Shown here: positions 6,573 to 52,993 of the stretch, in pieces
How positions within the stretch are numbered: the stretch's first letter is position 1
Layout of the letters: each line of letters opens with the position of its first letter
Assembly: GCA_041664365.1 (NCBI GenBank)
Contig: JBAYKW010000001.1
Span: 7,168 to 71,167, forward strand
Direction of reading: 5' to 3'
Length of the DNA: 64,000 nt
Source of the DNA: Patescibacteria group bacterium
Lineage (GTDB): Bacteria > Patescibacteriota > Patescibacteriia > UM-FILTER-42-10
The notes under the pieces: model-generated
What the model saw: only the letters and a program-made list of their open reading frames with translations
Databases searched by the model: none
What the model was told of the DNA's origin: nothing
Made by a program: the position numbers and the translations under genes

Positions 6573-6751
6573 ATGCCTCATTGGCGGCCGTCTGTGCGGG
6601 CTTCCGGCCTTCATTGAGGTTTCGCACCCTCGGACCAATCTCTCCGGTCCGGAGCCCCCGACCTAATAAGCTGCGCGCGGATCGCTCGTTCTCGGGCCTT
6701 GCTGTTGTTTTTGACAGCGGGCCTTATTTTATTTGCATTGAAATTCGCCTT

Positions 6752-6817
6752 GGGGTCTTGACCCCGTTAGAGAAATTCTCTAACGGGGTTGACAAAATGA
6801 GTGTTTTGCTGTATGAT
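6752..6817 (+). promoter_or_regulatory. overlapping palindromes (ggggtcttgacccc; ccccgttagagaa/ttctctaacgggg) directly abutting a TTGACA-N17-TATGAT promoter
   Basis: TTGACA at 6789-6794, a 17-nt spacer, and TATGAT at 6812-6817. The 13-nt inverted-repeat arms are at 6762-6774 and 6776-6788. Confidence 0.45.
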
Positions 6818-6916
6818 GACACGTTTGCAGTATTGTCACAGTGACAGTACCTGTGAGCAGTCTACAGCGTTTCACTCCGAAGCGCGTAGACAGTACCTTA
6901 GCTAGGGGAGAGTGTC

Positions 6917-8863
6917 ATGCCGTATTTCCTTCAGGCACTGCTCGTAAGCGTCGTCTCCATCATGGTGCCGATCGCTTTCGGCGCTGTGCTGAAGTACCAC
7001 CGTCCCACAATCGCTTGGGCAGGTGGTTTCCTTGCCACTGTCCTGTACACTCTCATCGTGTTCTGGCTTTTCTGGAGCGGCGCTGTCGGCGTGTACGGAC
7101 CGACTCCGTTCGCTGATGCGCTCATCTTCGGGTTCGCCCTGTCGGGTGTCTTCATCGGCCTCGGGAGCGCCAAAGGGGGGTACAGAAACGAGTTCTCCGG
7201 CCGGAGTGTCATTGGCTTCGGCTCGGGCTGTGCTGCGATGCTGTGGGTGCTCGGCGTGAGCGTGTTCGGATCTTCGGACATGGTGCATGCCGAGAAGAAG
7301 GCAAGGGTGATCGGTACGGTCGCGGAAGTGACCGAGATCGCTGACGTCATCCAGCCCGCGGATCCGGCACACATCTGTCTTGTGTCCGAGTCGATCGCGC
7401 GCGTGAAGGCCAACCAGGCGCTGTCCGAGTTCAAGATGGACGGCGGTGTGGTGGCAGGATCGCGTTTCAAGATCGGTGACCCGACGAAGCAGTTCGTCTC
7501 CGGACAGCTGTGGTGGATCTTCCCGGTGGAGTTCCAGGGCTGGCTCAAGTGGCGTCAGTCCAAGGAAGTCCCCGGCTATATCCGCGTTTCGGCGGAAGAT
7601 CCGTACACGGAAGGTCAGGCTGTTCAGCAGGATAGCAACGGGCAGCCGATCGTCATCCGGTATCTGGAGAGCGCCTGCTGGGAGTTCCGGGCTGACCGCT
7701 ACCTGCGGGGACACGGGTATATGAGCGTGATCCTGAAGGATTTCACGTTCGAGGTAGACGACAACTGGCGTCCGTTCTATACGGTTTCAGTCATGAAAAG
7801 AACCGTCGGTTACGCCGGCGAAATCACGACCGGAGTCGTCACGCTTGATCTGCAGACCGGCGATGCCAATCCCTACGGTATCGCGAACCTCCCTTCGTGG
7901 ATCGACCGCGGTGTTCCGCTCGACGTGATCGACAAGAATCTCAAGCGCTGGGCGAAGTACCGGCTTGAGGGATGGTGGTACTGCCTCCTACACAACGACA
8001 AGTCGATGGAACCAACGGAAGGATGGTTCCTGATCACCGATCCCGACGGTACCAGTCAGTGGTTCACTGGGCTCACCTCAACCAACGCGGGCGACGAGGC
8101 ACTCACCGGCTACACGGTTTCGGACACACGCACAGGTCTCACGACATACGTGAAGGCCCAGGGTGTGACCGAGTCTGTCTCGGCTCAGGCTGCGAAGTCG
8201 CTCTGGAGCAACTTCGATGGGTACGAACCGACCGAGCTCGTTCCGTACAATCTCTATGGACGTCTGACGTATGTCATTCCGATGGCGTACAACGGACAGT
8301 TCAAGGGCGTCAGTCTCGTCTCGCTCTCCAACCAGGAGGTTGCGGCGAAGGGAGCGACGCTTGAAGAGGCGCTTCGTGAATACCGCAATGCGCTCGCGCG
8401 TTCGGGCAGTAATGCCCTTGCACCGAGCGGTGGAGACCTCGCGCAGCTGACAATCACCGGCGTGGTGGGGCGGGTCGGGCAGCCGATCAGCCAGCAGACT
8501 GGGCAGCCGGTCATTCCGTTCACGATTGATGGCGTGGCCAAGGTGTTCACGGCCATCTACACGTACGACAATCCTGCCGTACTCGTGATGCGATCCGGCG
8601 ACGCTGTGACAGTCGAGTACCTCCAGACTGGCGAACGCGTGATCGCTTGCGAATCGGTGATCCTGTCGGGCATCCCGATTTCCGACGAGAACCCGGTGCA
8701 GGCACGCGCGAATGAACATCGTGCAATCGCCGATCGTGAACGCGGTCGGATCGATACGCAGCAGGAGCGTAACCAACTTCTCGAGAGCAACCGGATGAAC
8801 AACGTTGATCCGGAAGCACTCAAGAAGTTCCTCGACAGCCAGTCCGACAGCACTGCTCATTAG
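6917..8863 (+). CDS. GC-rich polytopic membrane protein (4 N-terminal TM helices plus ~500-aa extracytoplasmic domain), function unknown
   Basis: 648-aa ORF in DNA visibly far more GC-rich than the flanks. GGGGAGAG lies before the ATG. Hydrophobic N-terminus. No family recognised. Antisense ORFs in this span are shadow ORFs. Confidence 0.7.
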   Translation: MPYFLQALLVSVVSIMVPIAFGAVLKYHRPTIAWAGGFLATVLYTLIVFWLFWSGAVGVYGPTPFADALIFGFALSGVFIGLGSAKGGYRNEFSGRSVIGFGSGCAAMLWVLGVSVFGSSDMVHAEKKARVIGTVAEVTEIADVIQPADPAHICLVSESIARVKANQALSEFKMDGGVVAGSRFKIGDPTKQFVSGQLWWIFPVEFQGWLKWRQSKEVPGYIRVSAEDPYTEGQAVQQDSNGQPIVIRYLESACWEFRADRYLRGHGYMSVILKDFTFEVDDNWRPFYTVSVMKRTVGYAGEITTGVVTLDLQTGDANPYGIANLPSWIDRGVPLDVIDKNLKRWAKYRLEGWWYCLLHNDKSMEPTEGWFLITDPDGTSQWFTGLTSTNAGDEALTGYTVSDTRTGLTTYVKAQGVTESVSAQAAKSLWSNFDGYEPTELVPYNLYGRLTYVIPMAYNGQFKGVSLVSLSNQEVAAKGATLEEALREYRNALARSGSNALAPSGGDLAQLTITGVVGRVGQPISQQTGQPVIPFTIDGVAKVFTAIYTYDNPAVLVMRSGDAVTVEYLQTGERVIACESVILSGIPISDENPVQARANEHRAIADRERGRIDTQQERNQLLESNRMNNVDPEALKKFLDSQSDSTAH

Positions 8864-12481: not shown

Positions 12482-13132
12482 ATGAAGTTGCTGGATGCCG
12501 GCGTCATGCTGGTGCTCGTGGTGCTGATGGCATGCTGCATGATCAACCGTGATGATGTGGCAACCAACAAGCCGGATATCAGTACGGCTCAGGCGGCGGT
12601 GGATACCGTCTCCTACGATCCACTCAATACTCCGCCGTCAGGGATATCGGCGGTCAACCGCTTCTACGCCATCGTGGCGGAATACTTCCGCACTGTCGAA
12701 GAAGAGAATTCCGCCTGGATGAGTAATGAGCAGCATTCCAAGACCCGGTTCGAGAAGGAAAATCTGACCAGCTTTTTCACCTGGTGCTGTTTGAGGGACT
12801 ATTACCAGGACAAGCTGACACCGGAAGACAAACGCTGGCTGTTTGCCAATCTGGACGGATCGCGCCCACTGCCAGTCGGCATCGCGTTCGACTACTGGGG
12901 TCCGATCACGGACGTCCTGGGATTTGAGCCGACGGGTAATCCGCGTGCAGATTTTGAGGACTTTCTCCTCAACTCCTTTCCGGATACGGATTACCAAACG
13001 GGGTTCGACGCCTTTCATGACGCAAAAGCCATGAAGGCAATTCACCAGACGGTCCGTGCGCGGATGAAATCGCTAGGGGTCGAATATCCCAATGATCTTT
13101 CGCAGGCCGAGAGTCTGCTCACGTCCGAATAG
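12482..13132 (+). CDS. GC-rich putative lipoprotein, unknown function
   Basis: Hydrophobic N-terminus with an L-M-A-C lipobox-like motif. GGAGG RBS. Codon usage far more GC-rich than the neighbours. Confidence 0.55.
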   Translation: MKLLDAGVMLVLVVLMACCMINRDDVATNKPDISTAQAAVDTVSYDPLNTPPSGISAVNRFYAIVAEYFRTVEEENSAWMSNEQHSKTRFEKENLTSFFTWCCLRDYYQDKLTPEDKRWLFANLDGSRPLPVGIAFDYWGPITDVLGFEPTGNPRADFEDFLLNSFPDTDYQTGFDAFHDAKAMKAIHQTVRARMKSLGVEYPNDLSQAESLLTSE

Positions 13133-13165: not shown

Positions 13166-13166
13166 A

Positions 13167-13264
13167 CCCCCACACCAATATTATTAATAAAAATGGACGG
13201 ATATTTAATTGTAATTATGTTAGATTTATAAAATGTAAATTAAACTACCATATTGGTGTGGGGA
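13167..13264. repeat. 13-14 bp perfect inverted repeat (ccccacaccaata / tattggtgtgggg) bracketing a 70-bp AT-rich spacer
   Basis: Arms at 13168-13180 and 13251-13263. The arms are paralogous to the hairpin at 16347-16368. Confidence 0.55.
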
Positions 13265-13293
13265 TAAAAAAACGAAGACATGGTTAGTCTTCG
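13265..13293 (-). terminator. intrinsic terminator for the minus-strand GC-rich gene (stem cgaagac/gtcttcg, A-tract on + strand)
   Basis: On the - strand it reads cgaagac-taaccat-gtcttcg followed by TTTTTTT. The stop codon lies in the loop. Confidence 0.5.
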
Positions 13294-13769
13294 CAGGAAA
13301 GAGCGGTAGCGGGCGAGTGTTCGTCAGATTGTTCCGGAATCCTCCAGATGGCCAGCGAGCGACTTTTGGTCTTCCGGTATCCGATACCGTCGTCCGTGGC
13401 TATCAGATCGCGCATTGCGCGCAGGATCCGTGTTTCGCTGACGCCCCAGCCTTTGGCATTGAGGCGTTGCCGCACGTCGTTCGGTCGGATCTCCTTCAAT
13501 GGCTTTGCCATAGCCAGGATTCCGCGGATTTCCGCGAACAGGAGTTGGTCCGATTCCGCAGTGTCGGGGTAGTCGCGTGTTCGTACCTGTTCGGTACAGG
13601 GTACGATATGACGTAGCTTCGCCCTCTTGAGTGTCTCCTTTTCGCGCTTGCGATAATCCCTGATGACGGGGACGGCGAGCAGGGCGACCCAACCCAAGAC
13701 ACAGATGGCGATCAGCAGGTCCCCGTACTGACTGGCTCCCTGAGCGGTGGTCGTGACCGTGGTGTCCAT
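13284..13769 (-). CDS. GC-rich membrane-anchored protein with C-terminal winged-helix-like segment
   Basis: Internal start at MDTTVTT (AAAGG precedes it) is preferred over the track start at 13850. One TM helix. RILRAMRDLIATDDGIGYRK resembles a winged HTH. Confidence 0.45.
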   Translation of the reverse strand: MDTTVTTTAQGASQYGDLLIAICVLGWVALLAVPVIRDYRKREKETLKRAKLRHIVPCTEQVRTRDYPDTAESDQLLFAEIRGILAMAKPLKEIRPNDVRQRLNAKGWGVSETRILRAMRDLIATDDGIGYRKTKSRSLAIWRIPEQSDEHSPATALSCED

Positions 13770-13906
13770 AATAACCTTTCTTGTTCGGTTACTCTCCCGT
13801 CTGGCAAACATCGGTTCCACGGCGTTTGCAGTAATAAAACCTAGCACCACTAGTCTTGTTTGTCAACGAGTGATATAATTCTATAATAATAATTGATTGT
13901 AATAAT

Positions 13907-16278: not shown

Positions 16279-16290
16279 ATTATATCGATA

Positions 16291-16326
16291 AAAGACCTGC
16301 CGAATCAGCCGGTCTTTTTTGTATTA
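16291..16326 (+). terminator. hairpin (agacc…ggtct) plus TTTTTT after ABC permease
   Basis: aaagacctgccgaatcagccggtctttttt. Confidence 0.45.
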
Positions 16327-16346
16327 CCCGCATGGCTTGACTTCTA

Positions 16347-16396
16347 CCCCTACACTTGAGTGTGGGGGTTGACAAAAAATTTTATTCTGGTAGTAT
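16347..16396 (+). promoter_or_regulatory. hairpin cccctacac-ttga-gtgtggggg fused to TTGACA-N16-TAGTAT promoter
   Basis: 9-bp stem ending in GGGG immediately followed by TTGACA (16369-16374); TAGTAT at 16391-16396. Confidence 0.4.
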
Positions 16397-16470
16397 TGGC
16401 AATTACTGTCGCAGGTGGACGAAAAGTTCGCCACATGGATGTGAACCAAAGCCTCTAAGGGGACTGGTAC

Positions 16471-16908
16471 ATGCGTAAGCAGGCAAGTGCTTCCGTCGAT
16501 CGCGTGGAAAAACTCCGCCTCTGGGTGGAACGCTGTGATGATCATGACACGGGGAGTCTCTTCATGTCGATCCGGCCGGGTGCTTCAACACATGAAGGCG
16601 GCGTATATATCAGCTGCCAGGAAGGTACGAGGTACCTCTTCGCTGGTGAAGCAATTAACCTCAAGTCGCTGAATGCTGCTCTCGCGAGTAATATTCGCGA
16701 CGAATTCGAGGTGATTGTGACTGGCGTTCTCTACCAAGTCATTCATGGCGCCTTCGAGGTAGTTACTCAGGCACATCTGGCCGACACCGAGGATGGTGAA
16801 GGCAAGGTTGTGGCACCGAACTGGTCAGAAAAAGAACTGGCACGCATGCGCCGGGACTTTGCTCCCATCCACTTCATTCAGGCGGAAACGCTTGTCGTAA
16901 ACCTGTAG
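16471..16908 (+). CDS. GC-rich hypothetical protein (145 aa)
   Basis: GC-rich ORF between a promoter module and a terminator module. No recognisable domain. Confidence 0.5.
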   Translation: MRKQASASVDRVEKLRLWVERCDDHDTGSLFMSIRPGASTHEGGVYISCQEGTRYLFAGEAINLKSLNAALASNIRDEFEVIVTGVLYQVIHGAFEVVTQAHLADTEDGEGKVVAPNWSEKELARMRRDFAPIHFIQAETLVVNL

Positions 16909-16938
16909 ACAGTCCGTTCTTTTGGTCTTAACCGGCCG

Positions 16939-16978
16939 CCCGTAAATCCCCATTGGAATTTGCGGGATTTTTTTATTT
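16939..16978 (+). terminator. terminator module cccgtaaat-ccccattgga-atttgcggg + ATTTTTTTATTT
   Basis: 9-bp stem with one G·U pair, then a T-tract. Near-identical in design to the element at 17520-17556. Confidence 0.5.
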
Positions 16979-16996
16979 ATGAATTGGGGTGCTTAA

Positions 16997-17053
16997 CCCC
17001 GTTAGAGAAAATTATCTAGCCAGATTGACGGAATATTATTTTCTGTTAAGATA
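16997..17053 (+). promoter_or_regulatory. degenerate copy of the ccccgttagagaa element followed by TTGACG-N16/17-TAAGAT promoter-like sequence
   Basis: ccccgttagagaaa at 16997-17010 shares a 13-nt arm with 6762-6774 but the second arm has decayed. TTGACG at 17025-17030. Confidence 0.3.
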
Positions 17054-17129
17054 CTTATTCACAGTCAGGTATATTTCGATATCTGAATTGTGACCAGGCA
17101 CATTCGAGGAGTGGAGAGAGGAGTGGAGA

Positions 17130-17504
17130 ATGGAACAACAGGGCAGACATCATTCAGCCAGCGTGGAGAAGATTTTCGTTGCAGTGATACTGCGTCCTGA
17201 AGCTCTGCCCCAGGGCATGAGTTTTCTGGGAGACACGAGGGTTAACTTTTCCATCGGAGAAGTTGCCTTTCCCGAACTGCTTCCTTCGGATTCCTATCAT
17301 GTCGACGGAGAGTTGGATCAACTCACGGACGCTGGTCGGGAGAAGGTCAGGCCCGTCTGGAATCGTGCTGTGGATCAAGCCAGGACCCGACTGCCGGAAT
17401 TGGCGACTGTCTTCCCCGATTGGGAGGTGCGCTCCATCTTCCTTTATCGGAACGTCAACAATACCATGGTTCGTGATGTGGATCGATTTGATCTTAAACT
17501 TTAG
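17130..17504 (+). CDS. GC-rich hypothetical protein (124 aa)
   Basis: GC-rich ORF preceded by the direct repeat ggagtggaga(x2), which contains a GGAG RBS. No recognisable domain. Confidence 0.5.
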   Translation: MEQQGRHHSASVEKIFVAVILRPEALPQGMSFLGDTRVNFSIGEVAFPELLPSDSYHVDGELDQLTDAGREKVRPVWNRAVDQARTRLPELATVFPDWEVRSIFLYRNVNNTMVRDVDRFDLKL

Positions 17505-17519
17505 TTGCCATAGGCAACT

Positions 17520-17556
17520 CCCGCAATATCCCACTTGGTATTCGCGGGATTTTTTA
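17520..17556 (+). terminator. terminator module cccgcaata-tcccacttgg-tattcgcggg + ATTTTTTATT
   Basis: Stem with a one-nucleotide bulge, then T6. A paralogue of the element at 16939-16978. Confidence 0.5.
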
Positions 17557-17606
17557 TTGTAATATATTCAATTTTTGCATCAGAATTATGGTTTGGAAGA
17601 CGGGGG

Positions 17607-17635
17607 TTGACAGAATATTAAATTAGGTATATCAT
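17607..17635 (+). promoter_or_regulatory. GGGGG-TTGACA-N17-TATCAT promoter upstream of pilB
   Basis: TTGACA at 17607-17612, TATCAT at 17630-17635. Confidence 0.35.
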
Positions 17636-17718
17636 TGCATGTTTTGCTATTAATAAACGGTTGAAACAGATATTATCAAATAAATGTTCTAATCTTAGCC
17701 AAATAATTTTGTAATAAG

Positions 17719-19386
17719 ATGATTGCGACAAAACAGGTTACCGATGCCCTGAGAAAAGAGGGTATCTTATCCAAAGAAACATCGCATAAACTCAAGGAGT
17801 ACGAAAAACTCCAGATGGGTAATGTTTTGGATTTTTGTATTGAGCAAGGCATGGTCCCGTCATCTAAGCTGATTTCATTACTGCAGGAATCTCATTCACT
17901 GCAGGTAGTTGATTTGAATCAGGTAAAAATATATCCGGAAGTGGTTAAAAAACTTCCTTCTTCAATTTGTCTGGAACATTTGGTACTGCCCTTCCAGGAA
18001 GATAAAGCATATATTTATGTGGCAATGGCCCGACCGGAAAATACGGAACTGATTACTTATGTAAAAAAGTCGCTGAAAAAGGATGTGGCGGTGTATCTGG
18101 CCAATCAGAGGGATATTAAACAATACCTGGAGGAAACATTTAATAATTCCGCGGAATCAAGTAAAAAAGCAATTGATGAACTGATTGTCAGGGCATGCCG
18201 GATAAATAACACGCCGGAAACAATGGGACAGGAAGCCCCGATCATTTCATTATTAAACCAGATGATAATCTTCGGTATAAAAAGCGAAGCAAGCGACATG
18301 CATATTGAGCCGCGCGAAGATTCAGTTGCTGTGCGTTTTCGCATGGACGGCATGCTGCACCAATTTTTCACCCTGCCGAAAGAACTGCTAGCTCCGATAA
18401 TTGCGCGTACTAAAATATTATCTCAGATCCGTATTGACGAACATATGCGTCCACAGGACGGGAGATTCAGTTTTGACGAATCGGGATATAAAGTGGCGGT
18501 CCGTCTTTCTATCATCCCGACTCTGCACGGCCAGAAAGCATCCTTAAGATTTTTAGATACGGATAACGAGAACCTTTCGCTCAATACTTTGGGCCTGGAA
18601 AAAAACAATCGGGAAAATTTGAAAAAAATTCTTGGGTTTACCAATGGAATGGTTCTAATTACCGGCCCGACCGGCTCGGGTAAAACAACAACTTTGTATT
18701 CATTGATTAAAGAGATTAATAATCAGCAGGTTAATATTTCAACAATTGAAGATCCGATAGAATACCATCTGACCGGAGCGAACCAGATTCAGGTAAATCC
18801 GCATGTAGATTTGAATTTTGCGAGCGGTCTGCGTTCAATTTTGCGCCAGGATCCGGATATTATTATGATCGGAGAAATTCGGGACAAAGAAACTGCGACC
18901 ATTGCCATTAATGCCGCGATGACCGGTCATTTAGTATTAACATCTTTACATACCAACAGCGCCGCCGCCGCAATCCCGAGACTTTTGGATATGGGTGTGG
19001 AGCCGTATTTAATAGCTTCCACCTTGAAAGCAATTATCGGCCAGCGTTTGGTGCGTAATATATGCGCATCCTGTAAAACGGAATTTGTTGTCGATTCAAT
19101 TCCTAAAGAACTGGTAGAAAAATACTCTGCCACAGAAAAACCAATCGCTGCAAAAGGACAAGGGTGCCCTGAGTGTTTAAATACCGGATATTCAGGCCGA
19201 ACCGGAATTTTCGAAGTTTTAAATGTCGATGAAGATATCCATGATCTGATTATTAATCGGGCACATTCTTCATCAATAGAAGCAGCTGCCATAGCAAAAA
19301 ATATGAAATCGATGTATGAAGATGGAATAATCAAAGTACTTAATAAACAAACTACCTTAGAAGAGGTAATAAGGGTTACTAAATAA
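17719..19386 (+). CDS. pilB: type IV pilus / type II secretion assembly ATPase (PilB/GspE family)
   Basis: GspE N-terminal domain. Walker A GPTGSGKTTT. Asp/His boxes. C-terminal tetracysteine CASCK…CPEC. Confidence 0.85.
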   Translation: MIATKQVTDALRKEGILSKETSHKLKEYEKLQMGNVLDFCIEQGMVPSSKLISLLQESHSLQVVDLNQVKIYPEVVKKLPSSICLEHLVLPFQEDKAYIYVAMARPENTELITYVKKSLKKDVAVYLANQRDIKQYLEETFNNSAESSKKAIDELIVRACRINNTPETMGQEAPIISLLNQMIIFGIKSEASDMHIEPREDSVAVRFRMDGMLHQFFTLPKELLAPIIARTKILSQIRIDEHMRPQDGRFSFDESGYKVAVRLSIIPTLHGQKASLRFLDTDNENLSLNTLGLEKNNRENLKKILGFTNGMVLITGPTGSGKTTTLYSLIKEINNQQVNISTIEDPIEYHLTGANQIQVNPHVDLNFASGLRSILRQDPDIIMIGEIRDKETATIAINAAMTGHLVLTSLHTNSAAAAIPRLLDMGVEPYLIASTLKAIIGQRLVRNICASCKTEFVVDSIPKELVEKYSATEKPIAAKGQGCPECLNTGYSGRTGIFEVLNVDEDIHDLIINRAHSSSIEAAAIAKNMKSMYEDGIIKVLNKQTTLEEVIRVTK

Positions 19387-23104: not shown

Positions 23105-23140
23105 GCAGGCGCGACATCGATGTCGCGCCTGCTTTGATTA
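23105..23140 (+). terminator. 12-bp perfect GC-rich hairpin (gcaggcgcgaca-tcga-tgtcgcgcctgc) + TTTGATT
   Basis: Follows the stop of the vWA gene. Confidence 0.55.
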
Positions 23141-23148
23141 GGTATTGA

Positions 23149-23206
23149 CCCCATTAGAAACATTGTTTCTAATGGGGTTGACAATCCTTCTCTGATATGA
23201 TACCAT
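23149..23206 (+). promoter_or_regulatory. palindrome ccccattagaaaca/tgtttctaatgggg fused to TTGACA … TATGATA promoter-like element
   Basis: TTGACA at 23178-23183. TATGAT at 23196-23201 gives a 12-nt spacer; alternatively TACCAT at N17. Same hairpin-GGGG-TTGACA architecture as 6762 and 16347. Confidence 0.4.
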
Positions 23207-23293
23207 CCTCGGTCACGCGTGGATCAGGTTTTCACTGAAATGCCCTTGCGCGTGAGGGTGTTTCGCACACGGAAGTGTAAAGGTGGGAGAAGT

Positions 23294-23743
23294 ATGAAGA
23301 CGGCCATAATCATCGTCCTTGGTCTCGCTATCCTCGCAACCGTGATCGGCGTCAGCGTCTACAGGACGAACCAGGTGTTCGCTCTGCGGGCGATGACCAG
23401 CATCCCCGTGCTGGCGCTGACCGACCTCGCCGAAGGAGTGGATTACCGGCTGGAATCGTTCCAGCCTTTCATCCTGCGCAAGGACACGCACTTGAACGAA
23501 GCGTACATGGTAATCGTCAGATCCGACAAACTGCCGGTTTCGAGTTACAATCACTTGGCCGCCCTCGTGGTAGCCAAGCAGCTGGTGGAGATCTGCCCCG
23601 CAGACTCAACCCAGTCGGCTTCGGCGACGGTGACCACCGTGATCAGCGAAGGCGAAGGAGGCATGACTCGTATTCTGCACCTCCGCCCCCAGTACCTCTG
23701 CACGGAGCCCGAACCCAGGTCCATCCCCGCCGGCATTTATTAG
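23294..23743 (+). CDS. GC-rich membrane-anchored hypothetical protein
   Basis: Start chosen at MKTAIIIV, which has AAGGTGGGAG 6 nt upstream; the track start at 23219 has no RBS. One N-terminal TM helix. Confidence 0.5.
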   Translation: MKTAIIIVLGLAILATVIGVSVYRTNQVFALRAMTSIPVLALTDLAEGVDYRLESFQPFILRKDTHLNEAYMVIVRSDKLPVSSYNHLAALVVAKQLVEICPADSTQSASATVTTVISEGEGGMTRILHLRPQYLCTEPEPRSIPAGIY

Positions 23744-25465: not shown

Positions 25466-25825
25466 ATGGCGAAAAATTATGAAAACTTAGATGTCTGGAA
25501 AAGTAGTATTGTACTTAACAAGGATATTTATTTGATAACTCAAGATTTTCCTAAGGAAGAATTGTATGGTCTAACTTCTCAGATTAGAAGAGCGTCAGTT
25601 TCGGTTGCTTCTAATATTGCGGAAGGTGCGGGTAGAGCTTCTAAGCCGGATTTTAGCAGATTTATTAATATTTCTTTAGGTTCGCTCAATGAGGTCGAGA
25701 GCCTGTTATTTATTGCGCGTGAATTGAAGTATTTGAATTCAAATAAATTTAATGAGCTTAAAGGTTCTATAGAAAAACTAGGTGCAGGACTGGGAGCTTT
25801 CAAAAAGTATTTATCTAAAGAATGA
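25466..25825 (+). CDS. four-helix-bundle protein (formerly 23S rRNA intervening-sequence protein family)
   Basis: 119 aa. Pattern DVWKSSIVLNKDIYLITQDFPKEELYGLTSQIRRASVSVASNIAEG is typical of this family. Wedged between pheS and pheT. Confidence 0.75.
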   Translation: MAKNYENLDVWKSSIVLNKDIYLITQDFPKEELYGLTSQIRRASVSVASNIAEGAGRASKPDFSRFINISLGSLNEVESLLFIARELKYLNSNKFNELKGSIEKLGAGLGAFKKYLSKE

Positions 25826-37556: not shown

Positions 37557-37697
37557 ACATAGTAAGAAAATATTGGGCGGCCTAAAGGTCGTTTATTTTA
37601 TTTAGAGGAGGGTTTTCTAGATCACTAGCTGAGATTGTTTTGGCTGGTGATTTGGGGAATAGCCCTTTGACAATTGGCTCTGACGAAAGGGGAGATT

Positions 37698-38240
37698 ATG
37701 TACCGACTTGCGAGGATTTGCATGCTTGGTTGTGTGCTACTTTTACTGGTGACTGTCGATGCAAGCGCACAGTATGTGCTTGCCCGGTCAGTTGTCGGTG
37801 CAGGGCACGGACCTAGCACAAGCGGTCAATGGACGCTTCAAGCGTCACTTGGCCAGAGTGTTTCCAGTCGGGCAGGCGGGATGGTTTTTCTGGTCCACTT
37901 CGGTTACTGGAATGAGATCAGTGTCGTTTCCGGTGTTGATATCCCTCTGGTGCCGATGTCGACTTCACTTGACCAGAACTATCCCAATCCCTTCAACCCA
38001 GCTACGGTGATTCCATTCTCCATCGGAGGCAGCGAACCTGAGCAGGTTTCACTTCGCATCTACAACCTGCGCGGCGCTCTAGTGCGGGAACTGACCACGG
38101 GCTCTTGCCTCCCCGGATTCTACAAAATCCAGTGGGATGGTACTGATACCCAAGGGTTACAGGTTGCGACGGGCGTTTACTTCGTCCGGCTCGTGACAAA
38201 CCACGAAACCTTCAGCAGGAAACTCCTGCTGGTCAAGTAA
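37698..38240 (+). CDS. GC-rich secreted protein with type IX secretion system (Por) C-terminal sorting domain
   Basis: AAGGGGAG RBS and a signal peptide. CTD motifs LDQNYPNPFNPATVIPFSI, VSLRIYNLRGALVREL, IQWDGTDTQG and GVYFVRLVTNHETFSRKLLLVK at the extreme C-terminus. Confidence 0.65.
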   Translation: MYRLARICMLGCVLLLLVTVDASAQYVLARSVVGAGHGPSTSGQWTLQASLGQSVSSRAGGMVFLVHFGYWNEISVVSGVDIPLVPMSTSLDQNYPNPFNPATVIPFSIGGSEPEQVSLRIYNLRGALVRELTTGSCLPGFYKIQWDGTDTQGLQVATGVYFVRLVTNHETFSRKLLLVK

Positions 38241-38252
38241 GGGAGAAACGGA

Positions 38253-40499
38253 ATGAAGACATTCGGCATTCTTATGGTGGCACTGCTTGTGGCAGTCGCG
38301 GCACTTGCTGCCGTACCCGCGCAGGTGTCATACCAGGGACAGCTCACGAACGCCGGTGCTCCGGCTTCCGGCGAGCTCGTCTTTGCTTTCCGCATCTTTG
38401 ACCAGAACACTGCCGGATCACTCCTCTGGAGCGACACCGACACGCTGACCGTCACGAACGGTTTGTTCGATGCATACCTCGGCTCCAACACGCCTCTGCC
38501 GAAGGAAATTTTCACCGGAGCCGCGCTCTGGCTGGAGATCGACGTGGCGGGTGAAACTCTAGAGCCGCGCCAGCAGATCGTGACGGTTCCTTACGCCTTC
38601 CGTTCAGCCATGTCTGATACTGCGATCGTCGCGCTCAACGCGAGCGGTGGCGAGTCTCTGTGGGAGACGAACGGCACGGACGTGTACCGGCCGACGGGGA
38701 ATGTTGGGATTGGGACTAATAATCCCACAAGTAATCTGGATATTCGTGGGATTGTCCAAGTTGTTGATGAAGCATCTCCTGACACGAAGGACTATGCCAG
38801 TCTTGGTGTTACGAGGGCGAATGTCGCAACCAACAACAGCTACATTGGACTTACTAAGCAGTCAATTGTTCCCTGGGGCATTGGCATCAGCAGTACAGAA
38901 AAGTTCATTGTTGGCGTTGCATCAAGTAACCCGGCAAGGACGATTCCGGCTCCGCTTTTGACCATTGAACCTTTCACTGGTAACGTCGGCATCGGAACAA
39001 CAAGTCCGATACAAGAACTGGATGTGGCTGGAACGATTTATTCCAGCAAGGTGAAGTCCAATACTCCTCTGGATGATGAATTCTCCGGGAGTAACGGATA
39101 TTGGGGGCTGAGAACCGACACTTCCAACAGGTTCAACCTGGATGTCTATAATGGTGGTAGCCCCAAAGCGGCAATCACAGTTACAAACACTGGAGATGTC
39201 GGCATTGGGACGACGGTACCAGGAAGAAAATTAGATGTAAATGGACAAATCTACAGCTCTGTTGCGGCATCGGATATTATCAATTCCGGTGGTAACTTCT
39301 TGGGAAGCGGGGGATACTGGAGTTTTAGAACTGGAGTTGATAATCGAATGGGGTTAGATGTCTACAACGGAGGATCATCACTTGAAGCTCTAACTGTCTT
39401 ACAGAATGGCAAGGTCGGCATCGGGACCACTTCGCCGGCCTACACACTGGACGTCAACGGCACGATTCACGCCACGAACATCATCGCCGACAGCTTCGAC
39501 GACGGTGATTGGACGATCGGGAGTGGGGTGCTCTGGACGAACGACAAGGTCGGGATCAATCTGTCTTCACCGAGTTACCCGCTTCATGTTCAGGAGAGCA
39601 GTTCAGCAGACAACAAGCGAGCTGTTTACGGTAAAGAAACTGCGACTTCTGGTAACGTGTTCGGCGTTTACGGGGAGACTCTATCAAACGCAAGGAGTAC
39701 AACCGACACTCCGGAACGTTCGAGTGGCAGTGCAGCTGGGGTCTATGGACTCTCAAGCAGAACGGGTGCGGTCGGCGATGTGTTCGGAGTGCTTGGAGAA
39801 ATCCGGGGAGAAGGAGGGGATGGACCTACTCCGGACTTTGCTGCAGGAGTCTACGGCGTCAGCTATGCAACAACTGGCAAGTCAGCTGGTGTCATCGGTG
39901 ATTCCAAATCTGCAAGCAACTACGGTGCTGGCGTGTTCGGTGTCAACAGCTCCACCAGTGGAGCTACGCGGGGAGTGTGGGGCGAGGTACACTCACACGA
40001 TGGTGCTGGTGTTTATGGTCGCAATGTAGATGAAGATACGCACGTACTCTACACGGCAGGGTATTTCGAAGGAAACCTTGAAGTGCTCGGCACATCCACT
40101 ATGGCGGCCACACTCTATGTTCCGGACATCGCTCAGTACGCTGACACCAAGGACGGCATGGTGCAGTCCTACGGCATGACGTCGGCGTCGCCCATGGTTT
40201 CCGACCAGGGTTTCGCCGAACTGCGGAACGGCACTGTCCGGGTAACGCTGGATGACACGTTCTTTGAACTCATCTCCGAGACCGAGGAGCCGCATGTGCA
40301 GGTGACGCCTTACGGTCCGACCGGGCAATTGTGGGTGGAAACGCACACTGACGGTTTCACCATCCACGATCCCATCGGATCCTCCGCGAAGGTGGCGTAC
40401 ACCGTGACGGCGGTAAGACGCGGCAAGGAGGGAGTCCGTCTCGAACAAGTTGACCCGCAGACCTCGGAGCGTCTGAGGGAATTGGAATCCGCTCGGTAA
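38253..40499 (+). CDS. GC-rich tail-fibre-like / cell-surface repeat protein
   Basis: Signal peptide. At least four repeats of G(N/D/K)VGIGT(T/N)xP…LDVxG(T/Q)I. The N-terminal VSYQGQL…FRIFD…LWSDT…VTNGLF module is seen in Bacteroidota tail-fibre-domain proteins. 748 aa. Confidence 0.6.
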   Translation: MKTFGILMVALLVAVAALAAVPAQVSYQGQLTNAGAPASGELVFAFRIFDQNTAGSLLWSDTDTLTVTNGLFDAYLGSNTPLPKEIFTGAALWLEIDVAGETLEPRQQIVTVPYAFRSAMSDTAIVALNASGGESLWETNGTDVYRPTGNVGIGTNNPTSNLDIRGIVQVVDEASPDTKDYASLGVTRANVATNNSYIGLTKQSIVPWGIGISSTEKFIVGVASSNPARTIPAPLLTIEPFTGNVGIGTTSPIQELDVAGTIYSSKVKSNTPLDDEFSGSNGYWGLRTDTSNRFNLDVYNGGSPKAAITVTNTGDVGIGTTVPGRKLDVNGQIYSSVAASDIINSGGNFLGSGGYWSFRTGVDNRMGLDVYNGGSSLEALTVLQNGKVGIGTTSPAYTLDVNGTIHATNIIADSFDDGDWTIGSGVLWTNDKVGINLSSPSYPLHVQESSSADNKRAVYGKETATSGNVFGVYGETLSNARSTTDTPERSSGSAAGVYGLSSRTGAVGDVFGVLGEIRGEGGDGPTPDFAAGVYGVSYATTGKSAGVIGDSKSASNYGAGVFGVNSSTSGATRGVWGEVHSHDGAGVYGRNVDEDTHVLYTAGYFEGNLEVLGTSTMAATLYVPDIAQYADTKDGMVQSYGMTSASPMVSDQGFAELRNGTVRVTLDDTFFELISETEEPHVQVTPYGPTGQLWVETHTDGFTIHDPIGSSAKVAYTVTAVRRGKEGVRLEQVDPQTSERLRELESAR

Positions 40500-49250: not shown

Positions 49251-50186
49251 ATGAGACACTGTCTTACTCTAAAAGACTATTCCAAAGAGGATATCCTGGA
49301 AATAATCCGCAAGGCGCAGGAGATCAAAGCCAATCCGGAAAGATACGGGGATGTTTTGAAAAACAAAACACTAATCATGCTGTTCCAGAAGACATCCACC
49401 CGCACACGTCTATCCTTTGAAGCCGGCATGACTCAGCTGGGCGGACATGCGATATTTTTGGACAGCCGGACATCTCAGTTCGCATTAACCGATTATAAAG
49501 ACGAGATCCAGGCGGTGATGCGTTTTGGTGATGTGCTGATGTTCCGGGCAAAATCCTTTAATGACGTAAATATTGCCGCATCCCTCAACAAAATTCCGGT
49601 CATCGATGCCTGTTCCGAGAAATACCATCCTTGCCAGTCACTGGGAGATCTCTTGACCATGGTGGAACACAGCGGGGGAATTGAAAATATCAAAAAAGTA
49701 ACTTGGCTCGGCATTGAAAACAATGTCAGCAACACACTGAAACTGGTCTGCGCCAAACTGGGGATCGATATCTATCTGGCGGCACCAAAGGTACACGAAA
49801 TCAGCGTTGATGAAGAGCTAAACCAAATGGCAGAAGCAACCGGGAAGGTACACAAAACTGTGGATATGGAAGAAGCAATGAAAGATACGGATTACGTTCA
49901 CACCGACACCTGGATGGATATGGAATTTTTTGAAGACGGCAAAGTGAAGCCGGAATTTCAAGCGGAATATGAGAAGAGAATAGAAGAATTCAAGCCGTTC
50001 CAGCTCAATGCCGGAATCGTGGATAAATACAGCCCCAAGGTCGGAATTATGCACTGTATGCCGTGCCATGTCGGCTATGAGATATCACGTGACGCTATTG
50101 ATCATCCCAACTCCATAATTTTTGATCAGGCGGAAAACAGGATGCATATTCAAAAAGCCATCATTTTGTGGCTCATGGGGAAATAG
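49251..50186 (+). CDS. ornithine carbamoyltransferase-like protein (OTC/ArgF family)
   Basis: Motifs STRTRLSFE, HPCQ and HCMP, closer to OTC than to ATCase (pyrB is separate at 42385). Confidence 0.7.
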   Translation: MRHCLTLKDYSKEDILEIIRKAQEIKANPERYGDVLKNKTLIMLFQKTSTRTRLSFEAGMTQLGGHAIFLDSRTSQFALTDYKDEIQAVMRFGDVLMFRAKSFNDVNIAASLNKIPVIDACSEKYHPCQSLGDLLTMVEHSGGIENIKKVTWLGIENNVSNTLKLVCAKLGIDIYLAAPKVHEISVDEELNQMAEATGKVHKTVDMEEAMKDTDYVHTDTWMDMEFFEDGKVKPEFQAEYEKRIEEFKPFQLNAGIVDKYSPKVGIMHCMPCHVGYEISRDAIDHPNSIIFDQAENRMHIQKAIILWLMGK

Positions 50187-50203
50187 ATAAAAACCTTATT
50201 TCA

Positions 50204-50240
50204 CAAAACAGGCTCTGAATATTTCAGGGCTTGTTTTTTG
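50204..50240 (+). terminator. intrinsic terminator (caggctctgaa-tat-ttcagggcttg + T6)
   Basis: Stem with G·U pairs that forms only on the + strand, then TTTTTT. Confidence 0.55.
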
Positions 50241-50577
50241 TTTAAGTGTGTAATTCGGAGACCCACAAAAAGTAATGGATTCTCGGATCGCCTCCGATGT
50301 CGGTGTCCAAAAAACCTCCCCCGGAAATTATTTCTCAATCTAAGAACCCGACACGTCCTTCCCCTCCTTATCAAGGAGGGGAGCAGATTATTGTTACTAT
50401 TTTAAAATCATGTTCCGGAGGGGTGGTAAACCCAAGGGTAATTTACGGCAATCCCGTTCCTATGTTATTGCCATTCTGAACTTGTTTCAGAATCCATTAT
50501 TGCTATGGAACCGGAGATGCTGAAACTAGTTCAGCATGGCAGAATAATAACGGAATTCCTTTCAATGGGTACTGTTT

Positions 50578-50904
50578 TTATGTTAATAGACGATATAGCT
50601 CCAGCAAGCAATCTGAGTTGCGATTGAGATAAAGTGTCTTTGATCCCTTGGTAACATTTGGAAATCTTATTGATGATAATCTGTCGAACTCTTCATCACT
50701 AAGCTCGGTGTCGGTTATCTCCAGACCATTTTCCTCTGCCAGTTGTTTGATCGCTTCGGCCTGCTCGATAGATAGACCGACCAACAGGATTTTGCCGTTA
50801 ATCGATGCGGTTTGTGATTTGATAAAATCCAGAGAGGGGATAGTATCATGAGTATCGGTTGACTCACTAATATCAAGACTCGGGTTCATGTCCAGTGTTT
50901 TCAT
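50578..50904 (-). CDS. acidic hypothetical protein (108 aa)
   Basis: AT-rich ORF on the - strand inside the duplication-flanked insert. No domain recognised. Confidence 0.45.
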   Translation of the reverse strand: MKTLDMNPSLDISESTDTHDTIPSLDFIKSQTASINGKILLVGLSIEQAEAIKQLAEENGLEITDTELSDEEFDRLSSIRFPNVTKGSKTLYLNRNSDCLLELYRLLT

Positions 50905-51020
50905 AGAAGATTGTTATGAATTATTGTATTAGATAGTTATTTAATTTCAGCAATTATTTGCACAACATTATCTTAACATTACGATTCAGGTAAAGCAATC
51001 TGAATGTGGCCAAAATGCAG

Positions 51021-51047
51021 TTGACACATTTTAGTCGGTATTATAAT
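51021..51047 (+). promoter_or_regulatory. TTGACA-N15-TATAAT promoter for RidA gene
   Basis: TTGACA at 51021-51026, TATAAT at 51042-51047. GGGAGG RBS at 51099-51104. Confidence 0.45.
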
Positions 51048-51110
51048 ATTGCTAACCGTTCGCGCCTGTATTTGCAGGCATTTGCTGTGTCCGCAATCCG
51101 GGAGGTTACA

Positions 51111-51506
51111 ATGCCCAAGAAACAGAAGCCCGCGGGGATCCTCGCGATGGAGAGTGTCGGTCAGCCGTTTTCGACCTGCGTGCAGATCGGCAACCACTTC
51201 CACTTCTCCGGCACGGTCGGCCGGGTCGTCGACGGCAGGGTCGTCGGTGATCTCGAAGAGCAGATCGAGGAGATCTTCACCAAGATGGATAGCATGCTGG
51301 GCGTCTGCGAACTGTACCCCGACGATGTCTTCAGCGCCACGATCCTGCTGGCCGGCGACATGTCGGGCTACGGTCTCGTCAACACGAGCTGGAATCTGTT
51401 CTTCCGGTCCGCGGAGATCATGCCCCGTCGCAAGGCCTACGCCGTGAGCGCGCTGCCCTTCGACGCGCTGATCGAGATCGAGTTCGACGCGGTCAAGCAG
51501 GACTGA
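51111..51506 (+). CDS. RidA/YjgF/L-PSP family protein (GC-rich)
   Basis: Start at the ATG following GGGAGGTTACA. C-terminal AYAVSALPFDALIEIE resembles the RidA signature. The track's overlapping ORFs (51006, 51049) are alternative frames in GC-rich DNA. Confidence 0.7.
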   Translation: MPKKQKPAGILAMESVGQPFSTCVQIGNHFHFSGTVGRVVDGRVVGDLEEQIEEIFTKMDSMLGVCELYPDDVFSATILLAGDMSGYGLVNTSWNLFFRSAEIMPRRKAYAVSALPFDALIEIEFDAVKQD

Positions 51507-51534
51507 ACGCCCAAGCGGAACAAGCTGTACACAA

Positions 51535-51566
51535 GAGGATTCCATCCGGGGTCCTCATTTTTTATT
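51535..51566 (+). terminator. hairpin gaggattcc-atcc-ggggtcctc + ATTTTTTATT
   Basis: 9-bp stem with 2 G·U pairs, then a T6 tract. Confidence 0.5.
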
Positions 51567-51568
51567 AT

Positions 51569-51657
51569 AAAAAGCCATCATTTTGTGGCTCATGGGGAAA
51601 TAGGATAATAATCTTTACAACAAAACAGGCTCTGAATGTTTCAGGGCTTGTTTTAGA
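51569..51657 (+). repeat. direct duplicate of 50152-50240 (last 11 codons of the OTC-like gene plus its terminator)
   Basis: aaaagccatcattttgtggctcatggggaaatag is identical in both copies. The terminators acaaaacaggctctgaat(a/g)tttcagggcttgtttt are near-identical. The 16-nt spacer between has diverged. Confidence 0.7.
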
Positions 51658-51676: not shown

Positions 51677-52993
51677 TCAGCAACCATTGCGAGTACTACG
51701 AATGTAGGACGATGCAATCCTGATACTTTTTGACTTAAGTGCATTATCCCTAGGATCTTTTTTTGTCTCACCTTTTTTATTAATATTCTTATAATTTGTA
51801 AGACTTTCTGTAAATGTCGGCATTCCAATTTTAACTAGGGTATCTTTAGTTACATCACCATTAGTAGGCTTAAGTCCATATTTTTTTAATACTTTCTTTA
51901 TTACCGATTGAAGGCTATCGTCTAAAACAGAGTAATGTGATTTTTCATAATTAGTATAATAGTATGTTGCTCCCCAATTATCAACTCGAGTTTTCAGATA
52001 GTTGAGTGTTTTAAATAGACCATTTCTGTTTACTATTTTTATATCTTTAATAATTTTCTTAAATGCATTTGGCACAGGATATATTTTACTGCCTCGGAAT
52101 TTGATTCCAAGAAATTCAAAATCACTTCTCTCTATAGTGCAATACTTGTTATTATCCTTTGGTTTACTTATTGATAATGGATGTAATTTAAGTCGTAGTT
52201 TGTTCTCAATAATTTCTTTAGCAACTTTATGCATTTTTACTGCCTCTTCTTTTGTCTTGCACATAATAATAAAATCGTCTGCATAACGTACCATTTTATA
52301 ATTATGTTTTATCATTATCTCATCTAGTGGGTATAAATAAATGTTTGCAAATAATGGTGAAAGTATCCCTCCTTGAGGTATTCCGCCCTCTTTTGTCACG
52401 AAATTATCATATTCTCCAATTAAAATAAGATCATTCTTGTTACCTATCTCATTAATCAATGCACCTTCAATCAACTTATTTATTGATTTATCAGGTAAAC
52501 AAGGAAAAACATAATTATTTAGTAGATTAGAGACATCTATAGTATCAAAAAATTTTCTAATATCTGCATTATACACCCATTCATAACCGTGTTTTTTATA
52601 AAGTACAATTCTATCAACAGCATCTTTAACACGCTTTTTTTTAATGTATGCAAAACTTACAGGATTATCAATGTTATATCTTACTTTGATATAGTCAAAA
52701 ATTACAAGTTCAATTGCTTTTTGAACAACTCTGTCACGAACTGCGGGTATTTTGATAGCTCTAGTTTTCGATCCTTTCTTTAAAGGATAGCCTCTTAATG
52801 CTAAAAATTTGTATTTATTGTTAAGTAGATCTTTTCTAATAAAATTAAGCTGATTTTTTAAGTCATTTTCGAAATCCTCTATTGTCTGATTATCAATGCC
52901 TTTAGATTTATCTCTATGCTTTATTGAATCCCAAGAAAGTCGCAAATTATTTTGAGTTGCGACTTTTTTAAGTAGATTATTCGTTTTTTTCAT
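51677..52993 (-). CDS. group II intron-type reverse transcriptase/maturase (no endonuclease domain)
   Basis: RT motifs TRAIKIPAVRDRVVQKA, GIPQGGILSPLFANIYL and RYADDFIIMC (YADD). Maturase X-like NWGATYYYTN. 438 aa. Confidence 0.75.
   Translation of the reverse strand: MKKTNNLLKKVATQNNLRLSWDSIKHRDKSKGIDNQTIEDFENDLKNQLNFIRKDLLNNKYKFLALRGYPLKKGSKTRAIKIPAVRDRVVQKAIELVIFDYIKVRYNIDNPVSFAYIKKKRVKDAVDRIVLYKKHGYEWVYNADIRKFFDTIDVSNLLNNYVFPCLPDKSINKLIEGALINEIGNKNDLILIGEYDNFVTKEGGIPQGGILSPLFANIYLYPLDEIMIKHNYKMVRYADDFIIMCKTKEEAVKMHKVAKEIIENKLRLKLHPLSISKPKDNNKYCTIERSDFEFLGIKFRGSKIYPVPNAFKKIIKDIKIVNRNGLFKTLNYLKTRVDNWGATYYYTNYEKSHYSVLDDSLQSVIKKVLKKYGLKPTNGDVTKDTLVKIGMPTFTESLTNYKNINKKGETKKDPRDNALKSKSIRIASSYIRSTRNGC

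Follow-up and report, generated by a model that had tools for sequence, protein, structure and literature searches.

Proposed separate histories for two small GC-rich genes of a Patescibacteria genome, and a palindrome that abuts −35 boxes across phyla

A chromosomal segment of 64,000 nucleotides (nt) from an uncultured bacterium of the Patescibacteria (Candidate Phyla Radiation, CPR), referred to here as the window, carries two small open reading frames (ORFs) rich in guanine and cytosine (GC) in tandem: ORF1 (positions 16471–16908, + strand) and ORF2 (17130–17504, +). We propose, with a probability of about 70%, that these are two independent monocistronic units with different histories and that the palindromes upstream of them are copies of a dispersed repeat. 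ORF1 would be an old resident between the gene for an ABC-2 permease and pilB, with a strong promoter of its own, a conserved stem-loop in its leader and an intrinsic terminator. ORF2 would be a later arrival in the lineage of the window, inserted as a segment of ~0.54 kb just 3′ of the ORF1 terminator. This event would have left a second terminator copy, with copy A ending ORF1 and copy B ending ORF2, and the two terminators would look paralogous because the insertion duplicated that of ORF1.

Under this model, RNA polymerase would start at two strong promoters and stop at two terminators, giving two monocistronic mRNAs with structured leaders of ~75 nt. We infer promoter and terminator activity from consensus matches and conservation. 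The palindromes, at about −37 to −65, would lie outside the transcripts as passengers of strong, isolated promoters, resembling repetitive extragenic palindromic (REP) sequences or MITEs (transposable elements of the miniature inverted-repeat kind) and serving at most as insulators. They would be tolerated on −35 boxes because their right end restores TTGACA and the promoter survives. A preliminary description had read the same stretch as twin cassettes, captured by an integron-like or other site-specific route or built synthetically. On our account the locus would be unremarkable: two small genes, each complete in itself, one of them having entered behind a terminator that was duplicated.

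ORF1 is syntenic in related lineages

ORF1 encodes a Patescibacteria-specific protein of 145 amino acids with a GC content of 0.54 (0.58 at third codon positions, GC3), set among neighbouring genes of 0.39–0.43. Neither ORF1 nor ORF2 matched anything in Pfam, PHROGs, PADLOC or NCBIfam, a sequence search of the PDB with the ORF1 profile returned nothing below E 0.02, and the annotation deposited with the metagenome-assembled genome (MAG) calls the exact ORF1 and ORF2 proteins hypothetical. Coordinates, composition and these database negatives bear out the preliminary description of two unrelated GC-rich ORFs without known domains.

ORF1 has seven homologs besides the query, 51–71% identical, and every one with a named source comes from Patescibacteria. 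As in the window, the homolog sits between the ABC-2 permease and pilB at the loci that we label L001/L002, L007, L009 and L010. At L004 and L008 the pilus and ABC genes are absent, and ORF1 is followed by the ortholog of a 149-amino-acid gene found elsewhere in the window and by PheS. In every relative the GC content of ORF1 lies above that of its own locus (0.47–0.56 versus 0.38–0.42).

The regulatory parts are conserved along with the gene. A consensus scan predicts a sigma-70-type promoter at 16369–16396 (+), with TTGACA, a 16-nt spacer and the extended −10 element TGgTAGTAT. Its core, TTCTGGTAGTATT, is invariant across four orthologous loci in an alignment of the window, L001, L007 and L004. 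Downstream, a conserved 5′ leader block (16410–16445, +) consists of CGCAGGTGGAC, a variable loop of 4–5 nt and GTTCGCCACATGGATGTG. These sequences would pair as a 7-bp stem, which appears in the minimum-free-energy fold, is invariant in the same four loci and in L008, L009 and L010, and displays no covariation. Terminator copy A is predicted at 16939–16974 (+), with the stem CCCGTAAAT...ATTTGCGGG followed by T7 and a fold of −14 kcal/mol; the CCCG...CGGG-T terminator of ORF1 is invariant across the relatives' loci, as are the promoter core and the leader stem. Synteny in six related lineages, an invariant promoter, leader and terminator, and GC-richness in every relative argue that ORF1 is an old, vertically inherited, lineage-specific gene of stable atypical composition, and not a recent cassette.

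ORF1 and ORF2 are two members of a set of GC-rich ORFs dispersed among the window genes (GC 0.52–0.60, GC3 0.55–0.79), most of them without a Pfam domain. Further GC-rich genes lie at 6917–8863, 12482–13132, 13284–13850 (−), 23294–23743 and 38253–40499, again mostly lacking Pfam matches and with GC3 of 0.58–0.79 in the window ORFs; the gene at 5628–6101 of the relative L004 was listed with the same class. ORF1 at least keeps its high GC content in syntenic orthologs of distant relatives, and the orthologous gene of 149/157 amino acids is syntenic too. Because the composition is kept in syntenic orthologs, there has been no drift to the genome average.

ORF2 lies between two copies of one terminator

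The gap between ORF1 and pilB measures 811 nt in the window versus 207–228 nt in the relatives, none of which has a gene there. In the window, two terminator copies 582 nt apart bracket ~0.54 kb that holds a promoter module, a leader and ORF2. Copy B is predicted at 17520–17555 (+), where CCCGCAATA...TATTcGCGGG plus T6 folds at −19.3 kcal/mol (z −3.5). Each copy is a GC stem-loop with a T-run, 3′ of a stop codon. They are 86% identical over 28 nt, and their local alignment score of 41 compares with 20.6 ± 2.6 for shuffled sequences (maximum 30). Their common pattern occurs twice in 64 kb against an expected 0.06; thus these are not generic terminators ubiquitous in the window, and the paralogy noticed in the preliminary description stands. 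Copy A retains the ancestral left flank of the ORF1 3′ end, its upstream TTTTGGTCTTAACCGGCC matching L001 in the alignment, and copy B retains the ancestral right flank, ATTTTTTATTGTAATAT and the pilB promoter aligning with L001 and L007. One ancestral terminator is therefore now present twice. The earlier view that ordinary operon evolution does not explain this arrangement also broadly holds, in that the regulatory parts are re-used copies and ORF2 is a later insertion.

The promoter module of ORF2 (16984–17052, +) begins with a decayed palindrome of the kind that we call type I, made up of TTAA (16993–16996), one intact left arm, CCCCGTTAGA (16997–17006), and a right arm to 17024 that has degraded to CTAGCCAGA. 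A predicted sigma-70-like promoter follows at 17025–17052 (+), with the −35 box TTGACG (17025–17030), a 16-nt spacer and the −10 element TGtTAAGAT (17044–17052). Both this segment and 16369–16396 were called as sigma-70 promoters on TTGACA, a spacer of 16–18 nt, TAnnnT and an extended TGn, the ORF2 segment with TTGACG. The module is paralogous to 6745–6817 (score 52, z 17.5) and, as a member of the same repeat family, to 23139–23183. ORF2 itself has a Shine-Dalgarno sequence within a 12-nt tandem repeat, GAGGAGTGGAGA ×2 (17106–17129).

ORF2 (124 amino acids; GC 0.52, GC3 0.55) has few relatives, all in Patescibacteria. Four distant ones of 123–142 amino acids, including one from Kerfeldbacteria, emerged from a full HMMER scan together with a profile search; they have the signature FPEL...VRPxW...FPxW in common and make up, with ORF2, a sparse family of five. 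The structure model is confident (predicted local distance difference test 80, predicted template modelling score 0.70), with no confident relative among solved structures. An antisense ORF overlaps ORF2 at 17154–17534, and we considered whether ORF2 might be spurious; the distant relatives and confident fold of the + strand protein rule this out. The relatives stand in three unrelated housekeeping contexts, where they adjoin guaA, lie between ychF and rpsF or follow khpA. A predicted TTGACA promoter, a long leader and a predicted terminator belong to each of them, and none adjoins an ORF1 homolog.

Several observations weigh against a simple insertion, or blur it. The pilB promoter, at the 582-nt offset, also matches the −35 box of ORF2 with its spacer (TTGACGGAATATTA), and the 50 nt between the terminator match and the −35/spacer match are unrelated (14/50). 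The original duplication may thus have spanned ~45 or ~100 nt, and either paralog could be the source of the promoter module. Moreover, among the relatives found the closest ORF1 ortholog has 71% identity and none shows the exact empty site of ORF2, and the terminator copies are already just ~82–86% identical. With the nearest ortholog so distant, the boundaries and age of the insert are approximate. We also considered one tandem duplication of 582 nt and rejected it: apart from the terminator and a −35/spacer block of 14 nt, which are in register, the two segments agree no better than at random.

A second, like layout exists in the window. An 86-nt direct repeat (50152–50237 and 51569–51654, 86% identical) brackets an insert of 1.33 kb (50238–51568). 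The repeat comprises the 3′ end of a gene of the ornithine/aspartate carbamoyltransferase family and its terminator, and the insert carries a GC-rich RidA-like ORF (51111–51506, +) with its own predicted TTGACA-17-TAATAT promoter at 51021. These two cases suggest that single genes are added recurrently as units between terminator copies; integration of a circular or linear fragment carrying the same terminator sequence would be one candidate route. Together, the ORF2 locus and 50152–51654 would illustrate how a streamlined symbiont genome gains single genes as promoter-gene units, each new gene bracketed by a repeat of its neighbour's terminator. Both the terminator-duplicating insertion of ORF2 and the −35 palindrome described below are real features that merit follow-up, the palindrome above all.

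A palindrome abuts −35 boxes in many genomes

Type-I palindromes have the form TTGAC-CCCGTTAGA-inner stem and loop-TCTAACGGGG-TTGACA. The window holds two intact copies besides the decayed one upstream of ORF2. The first, at 6758–6794 (+), precedes a GC-rich ORF of 648 amino acids and reads TTGAC-CCCGTTAGAGAA-A-TTCTCTAACGGGG-TTGACA; it folds at −26 kcal/mol (z −6.2) and fits the cross-phylum pattern given below. The second, at 23145–23183 (+; −24.6 kcal/mol, z −5.7), precedes the GC-rich ORF of 149 amino acids at 23294–23743. Within the window, GGGGTTGACA was found exactly four times against an expected 0.10.

The palindrome that abuts the ORF1 promoter (16337–16374, +) comprises TTGAC (16337–16341), the arms CCCCTACAC (16347–16355) and GTGTGGGGG (16360–16368) and the −35 box TTGACA (16369–16374). 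Its hairpin, 16347–16368, is intact and abuts TTGACA (−18.5 kcal/mol, z −3.9). It is of a different sequence type from 6758–6794 and the ORF2-upstream palindrome. The preliminary description had seen one hairpin-GGGG-TTGACA kit twice; this is correct for ORF1, where the kit is intact, and not for ORF2, which has one arm of the other palindrome and TTGACG. Likewise, of the paralogies it drew between the upstream hairpins and elements at 6762 and 13168, the former is solid for the ORF2 module, and the latter depends on a single 9-mer, CCCCYACAC, the only sequence that the ORF1 hairpin and the 13167 element have in common. The 9-mer has three matches against 0.29 expected, and two of the three are the two arms of one hairpin. 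The kinship of these elements is accordingly tentative.

The 13167 element belongs to a long inverted repeat at 13166–13250, with 14-nt arms, CCCCCACACCAATAT and ATATTGGTGTGGGG, around an AT-rich spacer of ~55 nt. It lies between the terminators of two convergent GC-rich genes and may be a small MITE-like remnant.

We took a census of the type-I palindrome with the pattern CCCCRTTAKA-N4-14-TCTARYGGGGTTGAC across GTDB, each species being represented by one genome. The matches number at least 120 DNA stretches, with 123 copies in 89 assemblies among the matches listed; by our own estimate, fewer than one would be expected by chance. Among the matches listed, the carriers are mostly classes of Patescibacteria, and they include several Saccharibacteria MAGs. 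Other labels are Nitrospirota/Thermodesulfovibrionia, Brocadiia, Pirellulales, Omnitrophota, Desulfobacterota, Elusimicrobiota and TA06, and further ones are one Bacteroidota MAG, several 'Gammaproteobacteria' MAGs and one bin of a DPANN archaeon. This last copy (L105, 194–228), in a bin labelled Aenigmatarchaeota, reflects either mis-binning or cross-domain spread.

An anatomy profile was drawn from 122 non-redundant copies. On their left the copies are flanked by TTGA (T.89, T.91, G.69, A.87), and in 57% of them an A follows the right TTGAC. At promoter spacing there is a −10 signal (TG at +16/+17, T at +19, A at +20, T at +24), with a −10-like hexamer in 71/126 copies. Because of this spacing the right TTGAC(A) can be recognized as a −35 box, which the element usually supplies among the matches listed. 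The outer 10-bp stem, whose arms were part of the search pattern, is invariant across phyla, and the middle measures 6–14 nt. The inner stem covaries: at pair 1, 119/126 copies are Watson-Crick and three pair types occur, compared with a mean of 44 after permutation. Mismatches of the G-T and A-C kinds have the same frequency, which points to symmetry at the level of DNA rather than RNA; an RNA hairpin with G-U wobble flanks was rejected on this ground.

We also considered a phage or plasmid sequence. IMG/VR gave 0 matches, and BLAST against PLSDB and INPHARED stayed at chance level. No Rfam family matched the palindrome. Literature searches with the exact strings CCCCGTTAGA and TCTAACGGGG gave unrelated primer-type matches only, and topic searches nothing relevant; we thus found no earlier description of the palindrome in Rfam or the searchable literature.

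A mobile repeat or an operator

Orthologous promoters exist with and without the element. At the ORF1 promoter, the window, L001 and L009 each carry a palindrome, different in every case, and L007, L004 and L010 carry none. Likewise, the 149-amino-acid gene has a filled promoter in the window and an empty one, cTTGACAATAT, in L004 and L008; the encoded proteins are orthologous (44% identity, E 5e-28). A single TTGACA stands at the empty sites of both promoters. The variable middles are more alike within assemblies than between them (similarity 0.60 versus 0.27, p 6e-23, among the matches listed), and one assembly has at least nine copies among those listed. At two loci (L107 and L109), it takes the form of an insertion of 33 nt, in frame, at ATTGAC within a conserved C-terminal coding motif, ...ERQID|QMVYxLYDLTxEEIxIVEG, typical of proteins of the restriction-modification type, and related copies occur in L016, L039 and L075. 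A 5-nt TTGAC repeat brackets the coding-region and the promoter copies alike, the right TTGAC being set by the search pattern in the census. The genes 3′ of the palindromes are functionally heterogeneous, with L19, DnaE, FtsZ, TsaD and UvrA as examples, and hence form no regulon.

These four lines of evidence (unrelated downstream genes, similarity within assemblies, filled and empty promoters, and the in-frame coding insertion) point to a multiplying repeat rather than a regulon, and one that would be mobile. We go one step further only tentatively, at somewhat short of even odds: an undescribed class of ~28-nt palindromes would insert at the TTGAC of −35 boxes, duplicate the box, multiply within genomes and have spread as a promoter-homing repeat across Patescibacteria, Nitrospirota, Planctomycetota, Omnitrophota, Desulfobacterota, Elusimicrobiota and further lineages without cultured members. 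Should it prove mobile, the palindrome would rank with the smallest known transposable units, and its promoter-homing would bear on promoter evolution, on the tracing of gene flow among uncultured lineages and on promoter annotation in Patescibacteria.

Three points tell against the reading as a mobile repeat. The right TTGAC was fixed by the search pattern, which leaves the left flank as the only unbiased evidence of a direct repeat. The coding-region insertions may all stem from a single event. Finally, no protein family recurs by the copies (at most 7/120 of the 8-kb loci among the matches listed); a cis-encoded transposase is rejected on this ground, and the mobilising enzyme, if any, would act in trans. 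We infer, rather than observe, how the palindrome would move, just as we do what the ORF1 and ORF2 proteins would do.

The best-placed alternative, which we nonetheless regard as improbable, is that the palindromes serve a regulator of a set of GC-rich genes as operators, or as binding sites specific for the hairpin, and are conserved for their function. All four hairpin promoters in the window precede GC-rich ORFs, the outer stem is invariant, activators and UP elements exert their effect in the span from about −37 to −65 that the palindromes occupy, and at several Patescibacteria loci the downstream gene is GC-richer than the locus. However, across the other genomes this GC excess is not significant (Wilcoxon p 0.09), and the association within the window probably arises because such genes have isolated consensus promoters. 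The spacing of the half-sites varies (6–14 nt) and the inner stem is free to covary, which fits a hairpin better than a dimeric operator of double-stranded DNA. Heterogeneous downstream genes rule against a regulon operator, as do orthologous promoters that lack the element, a lineage of copies inside a coding motif and middles whose similarity within a genome exceeds that between genomes. The palindromes may have an insulating or supercoiling-sensitive role.

Three loci show further arrangements. At ~3750–3815 of L009, upstream of the −35 box of the ORF1 ortholog, there is a tandem pair of unlike palindromes, each with TTGAC at its borders. In L122, one element is apparently nested beside the remnant of another. 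Between orthologous copies in two related Patescibacteria MAGs (L046, 5094–5126; L085, 7925–7957), the inner stem-loop is inverted (GCAAATGC versus GCATTTGC), an outcome to be expected of recombination between the arms that flips the loop.

Comparison with known repeats

The palindrome behaves like REP sequences and MITEs in its multiple copies, its filled and empty sites and its similarity within genomes, and may do so in a fourth respect, its putative flanking repeats. REP sequences and bacterial interspersed mosaic elements (BIMEs) of Proteobacteria, mobilised by HUH transposases of the RAYT type (REP-associated tyrosine transposases), are likewise imperfect palindromes of ~30–40 nt dispersed in intergenic DNA, with a conserved stem foot, a variable interior and a short conserved motif that adjoins the stem, and their copies are also more similar within a genome than between genomes. 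However, most REPs stand downstream of genes, with GTAG as the 5′ foot, and they are lineage-specific and RAYT-linked. The element of the window instead abuts and regenerates a −35 box, has a putative TTGA(C) direct repeat at its flanks and keeps the same outer stem of 10 bp in many phyla; the 8-kb loci around the copies listed revealed neither a RAYT-like gene nor any other that recurs.

Promoter-carrying MITEs, such as the Correia elements of Neisseria, and insertion sequences with outward −35 boxes, whose ends form hybrid promoters, resemble it as small, non-autonomous inverted repeats with a target-site duplication (a putative one in the window element) that supply or rebuild promoter parts for the adjacent gene and leave filled and empty sites between relatives. 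Correia elements differ in their length (100–155 bp), TA duplication and long terminal inverted repeats, whereas the window element measures ~28 nt plus a 4–5-nt repeat, apparently targets the −35 hexamer and has no known parent insertion sequence. Rickettsia palindromic elements and the GC clusters of yeast mitochondria offer a parallel to the 33-nt insertion of L107/L109, as tiny palindromes within coding sequence that keep the frame. Those are restricted to an organelle or a genus and are not associated with promoters, whereas most copies of the window element are intergenic and at −35 boxes. To our knowledge, no described family combines a size of ~28 nt, an apparent choice of the −35 hexamer, an outer stem kept across phyla and the lack of an identified transposase.

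Alternative accounts of the two-gene locus

The two terminators could also have arisen if the ORF2 unit were a tandem duplicate of the whole ORF1 unit, with a coding part that was later replaced or diverged. The duplicated terminators are in keeping with this, as is the resemblance of the ORF2 promoter module to ORF1-type promoters of relatives (z 11.2 for L001 and ~4.2 for L004 and L008). We consider it unlikely, since the ORF1 and ORF2 families are unrelated (BLASTP E 20; hhalign probability 0.08%), local DNA alignment of the two units yields the terminator only, and ORF2 has its own family elsewhere. BLASTP, DNA alignment and the comparison of family profiles together rule out ORF2 as a diverged paralog of ORF1. 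In addition, the best match of the ORF2 promoter module is 6745–6817 and not the ORF1 promoter of the window (z 1.3), and none of the six related lineages has tandem ORF1 paralogs.

Far less credible is a functional pair of the toxin/antitoxin or effector/immunity type, proposed in the preliminary description for the two adjacent, small, domain-less genes of atypical composition. The co-occurrence that it would entail was not found: all relatives examined have ORF1 without ORF2, and the ORF2 relatives occur without ORF1 in their three contexts. The 221 nt that separate the two genes hold a predicted terminator and a predicted promoter, against co-transcription, and no toxin, antitoxin or defence domain emerged from the Pfam, PADLOC, NCBIfam and PHROGs searches.

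Synthetic construction is contradicted by the same locus in independent metagenome assemblies. Least probable of all, scarcely above nil, is an integron-like or site-specific cassette array in which a recombinase captured both ORFs through attC-like stem-loops: two short, unrelated ORFs in tandem and in the same orientation, each with a similar imperfect palindrome 3′ of it and one of them truly inserted, do recall such an array, but Pfam scans of window ORFs of at least 100 amino acids revealed no tyrosine or serine recombinase (IntI included), integrase or transposase domain, no attI was found, the stem-loops at 16939–16974 and 17520–17555 fold as terminators (GC stems followed by T6–7) and lack the RYYYAAC/GTTRRRY cores of attC sites (R″/L″...L′/R′), the 64 kb contain no more than two stem-loops of this kind, both ORFs have predicted promoters of their own, and cassette variability is confined to ORF2, with ORF1 vertical and fixed in six related lineages. 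Of the 'twin' cassettes, then, one is an insert and the other a resident gene.

Genome setting and further features

The window has a GC content of ~40%, with a background of ~0.38–0.45. The genes around the locus are ordinary ones. They include those for a UvrD/PD-(D/E)XK helicase-nuclease, a P-type ATPase, pyruvate kinase, an M4 peptidase and the ABC-2 exporter, followed by a type IV pilus operon (pilB, pilC, pseudopilins and a VWA protein), PheS/PheT and GyrB, and farther along by genes for ribosomal proteins and pyrimidine biosynthesis. No tRNAs were found in the window, and an Rfam scan of all of it at the gathering threshold gave 0 matches; scans of 6700–6920 and 16280–17720 by E value returned only chance matches to microRNAs and small RNAs.

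Two features flank the ORF1–ORF2 locus. An inverted repeat at 16290–16325 (+; arms 16290–16303 and 16305–16318, then a T-run) is the predicted intrinsic terminator of the upstream ABC-2 permease gene, with a fold of −11.1 kcal/mol (z −2.9), and an equivalent hairpin occupies the matching position in L001 and L007. On the other side, the predicted pilB promoter at 17602–17635 (+) reads GGGGG-TTGACA, 17 nt and TATCAT, has no palindrome and is conserved in L001, L007 and L009.

The leader of the 149-amino-acid gene (23213–23280) contains blocks conserved across orthologs, GTCACGCGTG...GCGCGTGA...CACACGGAAGTG. It and the ORF1 leader at 16410–16445, neither of which matched Rfam, may be cis-regulatory RNA elements.

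The sole mobile-type enzyme of the window is a reverse transcriptase, 34 kb from the ORF1–ORF2 locus (51677–52993, −; RVT_1, E 1.5e-28), whose gene has only 29% GC. Two 150-nt repeats (53056–53205 and 53371–53520, 98% identical) adjoin it. They were considered as the template and variable repeats of a diversity-generating retroelement and rejected, as their three differences (T>C, T>C and A>T on the reverse transcriptase strand) are not adenine-specific. A PIN_12 protein is encoded at 54790–55761 (−).

At 25466–25825, a gene for a four-helix-bundle protein of the 23S rRNA intervening-sequence or bAvd-like kind is inserted between pheS and pheT. A GC-rich pair at 37674–40499 encodes a protein of 188 amino acids with FlgD_ig and Por_Secre_tail domains and one of 748 amino acids with repeats of ~72 amino acids, the latter matching PHROGs of phage tail fibres. 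The end of the window (62823–63980, −) has a weak Baseplate_J match, and this gene and the pair at 37674–40499 may encode surface proteins or proteins of a contractile system.

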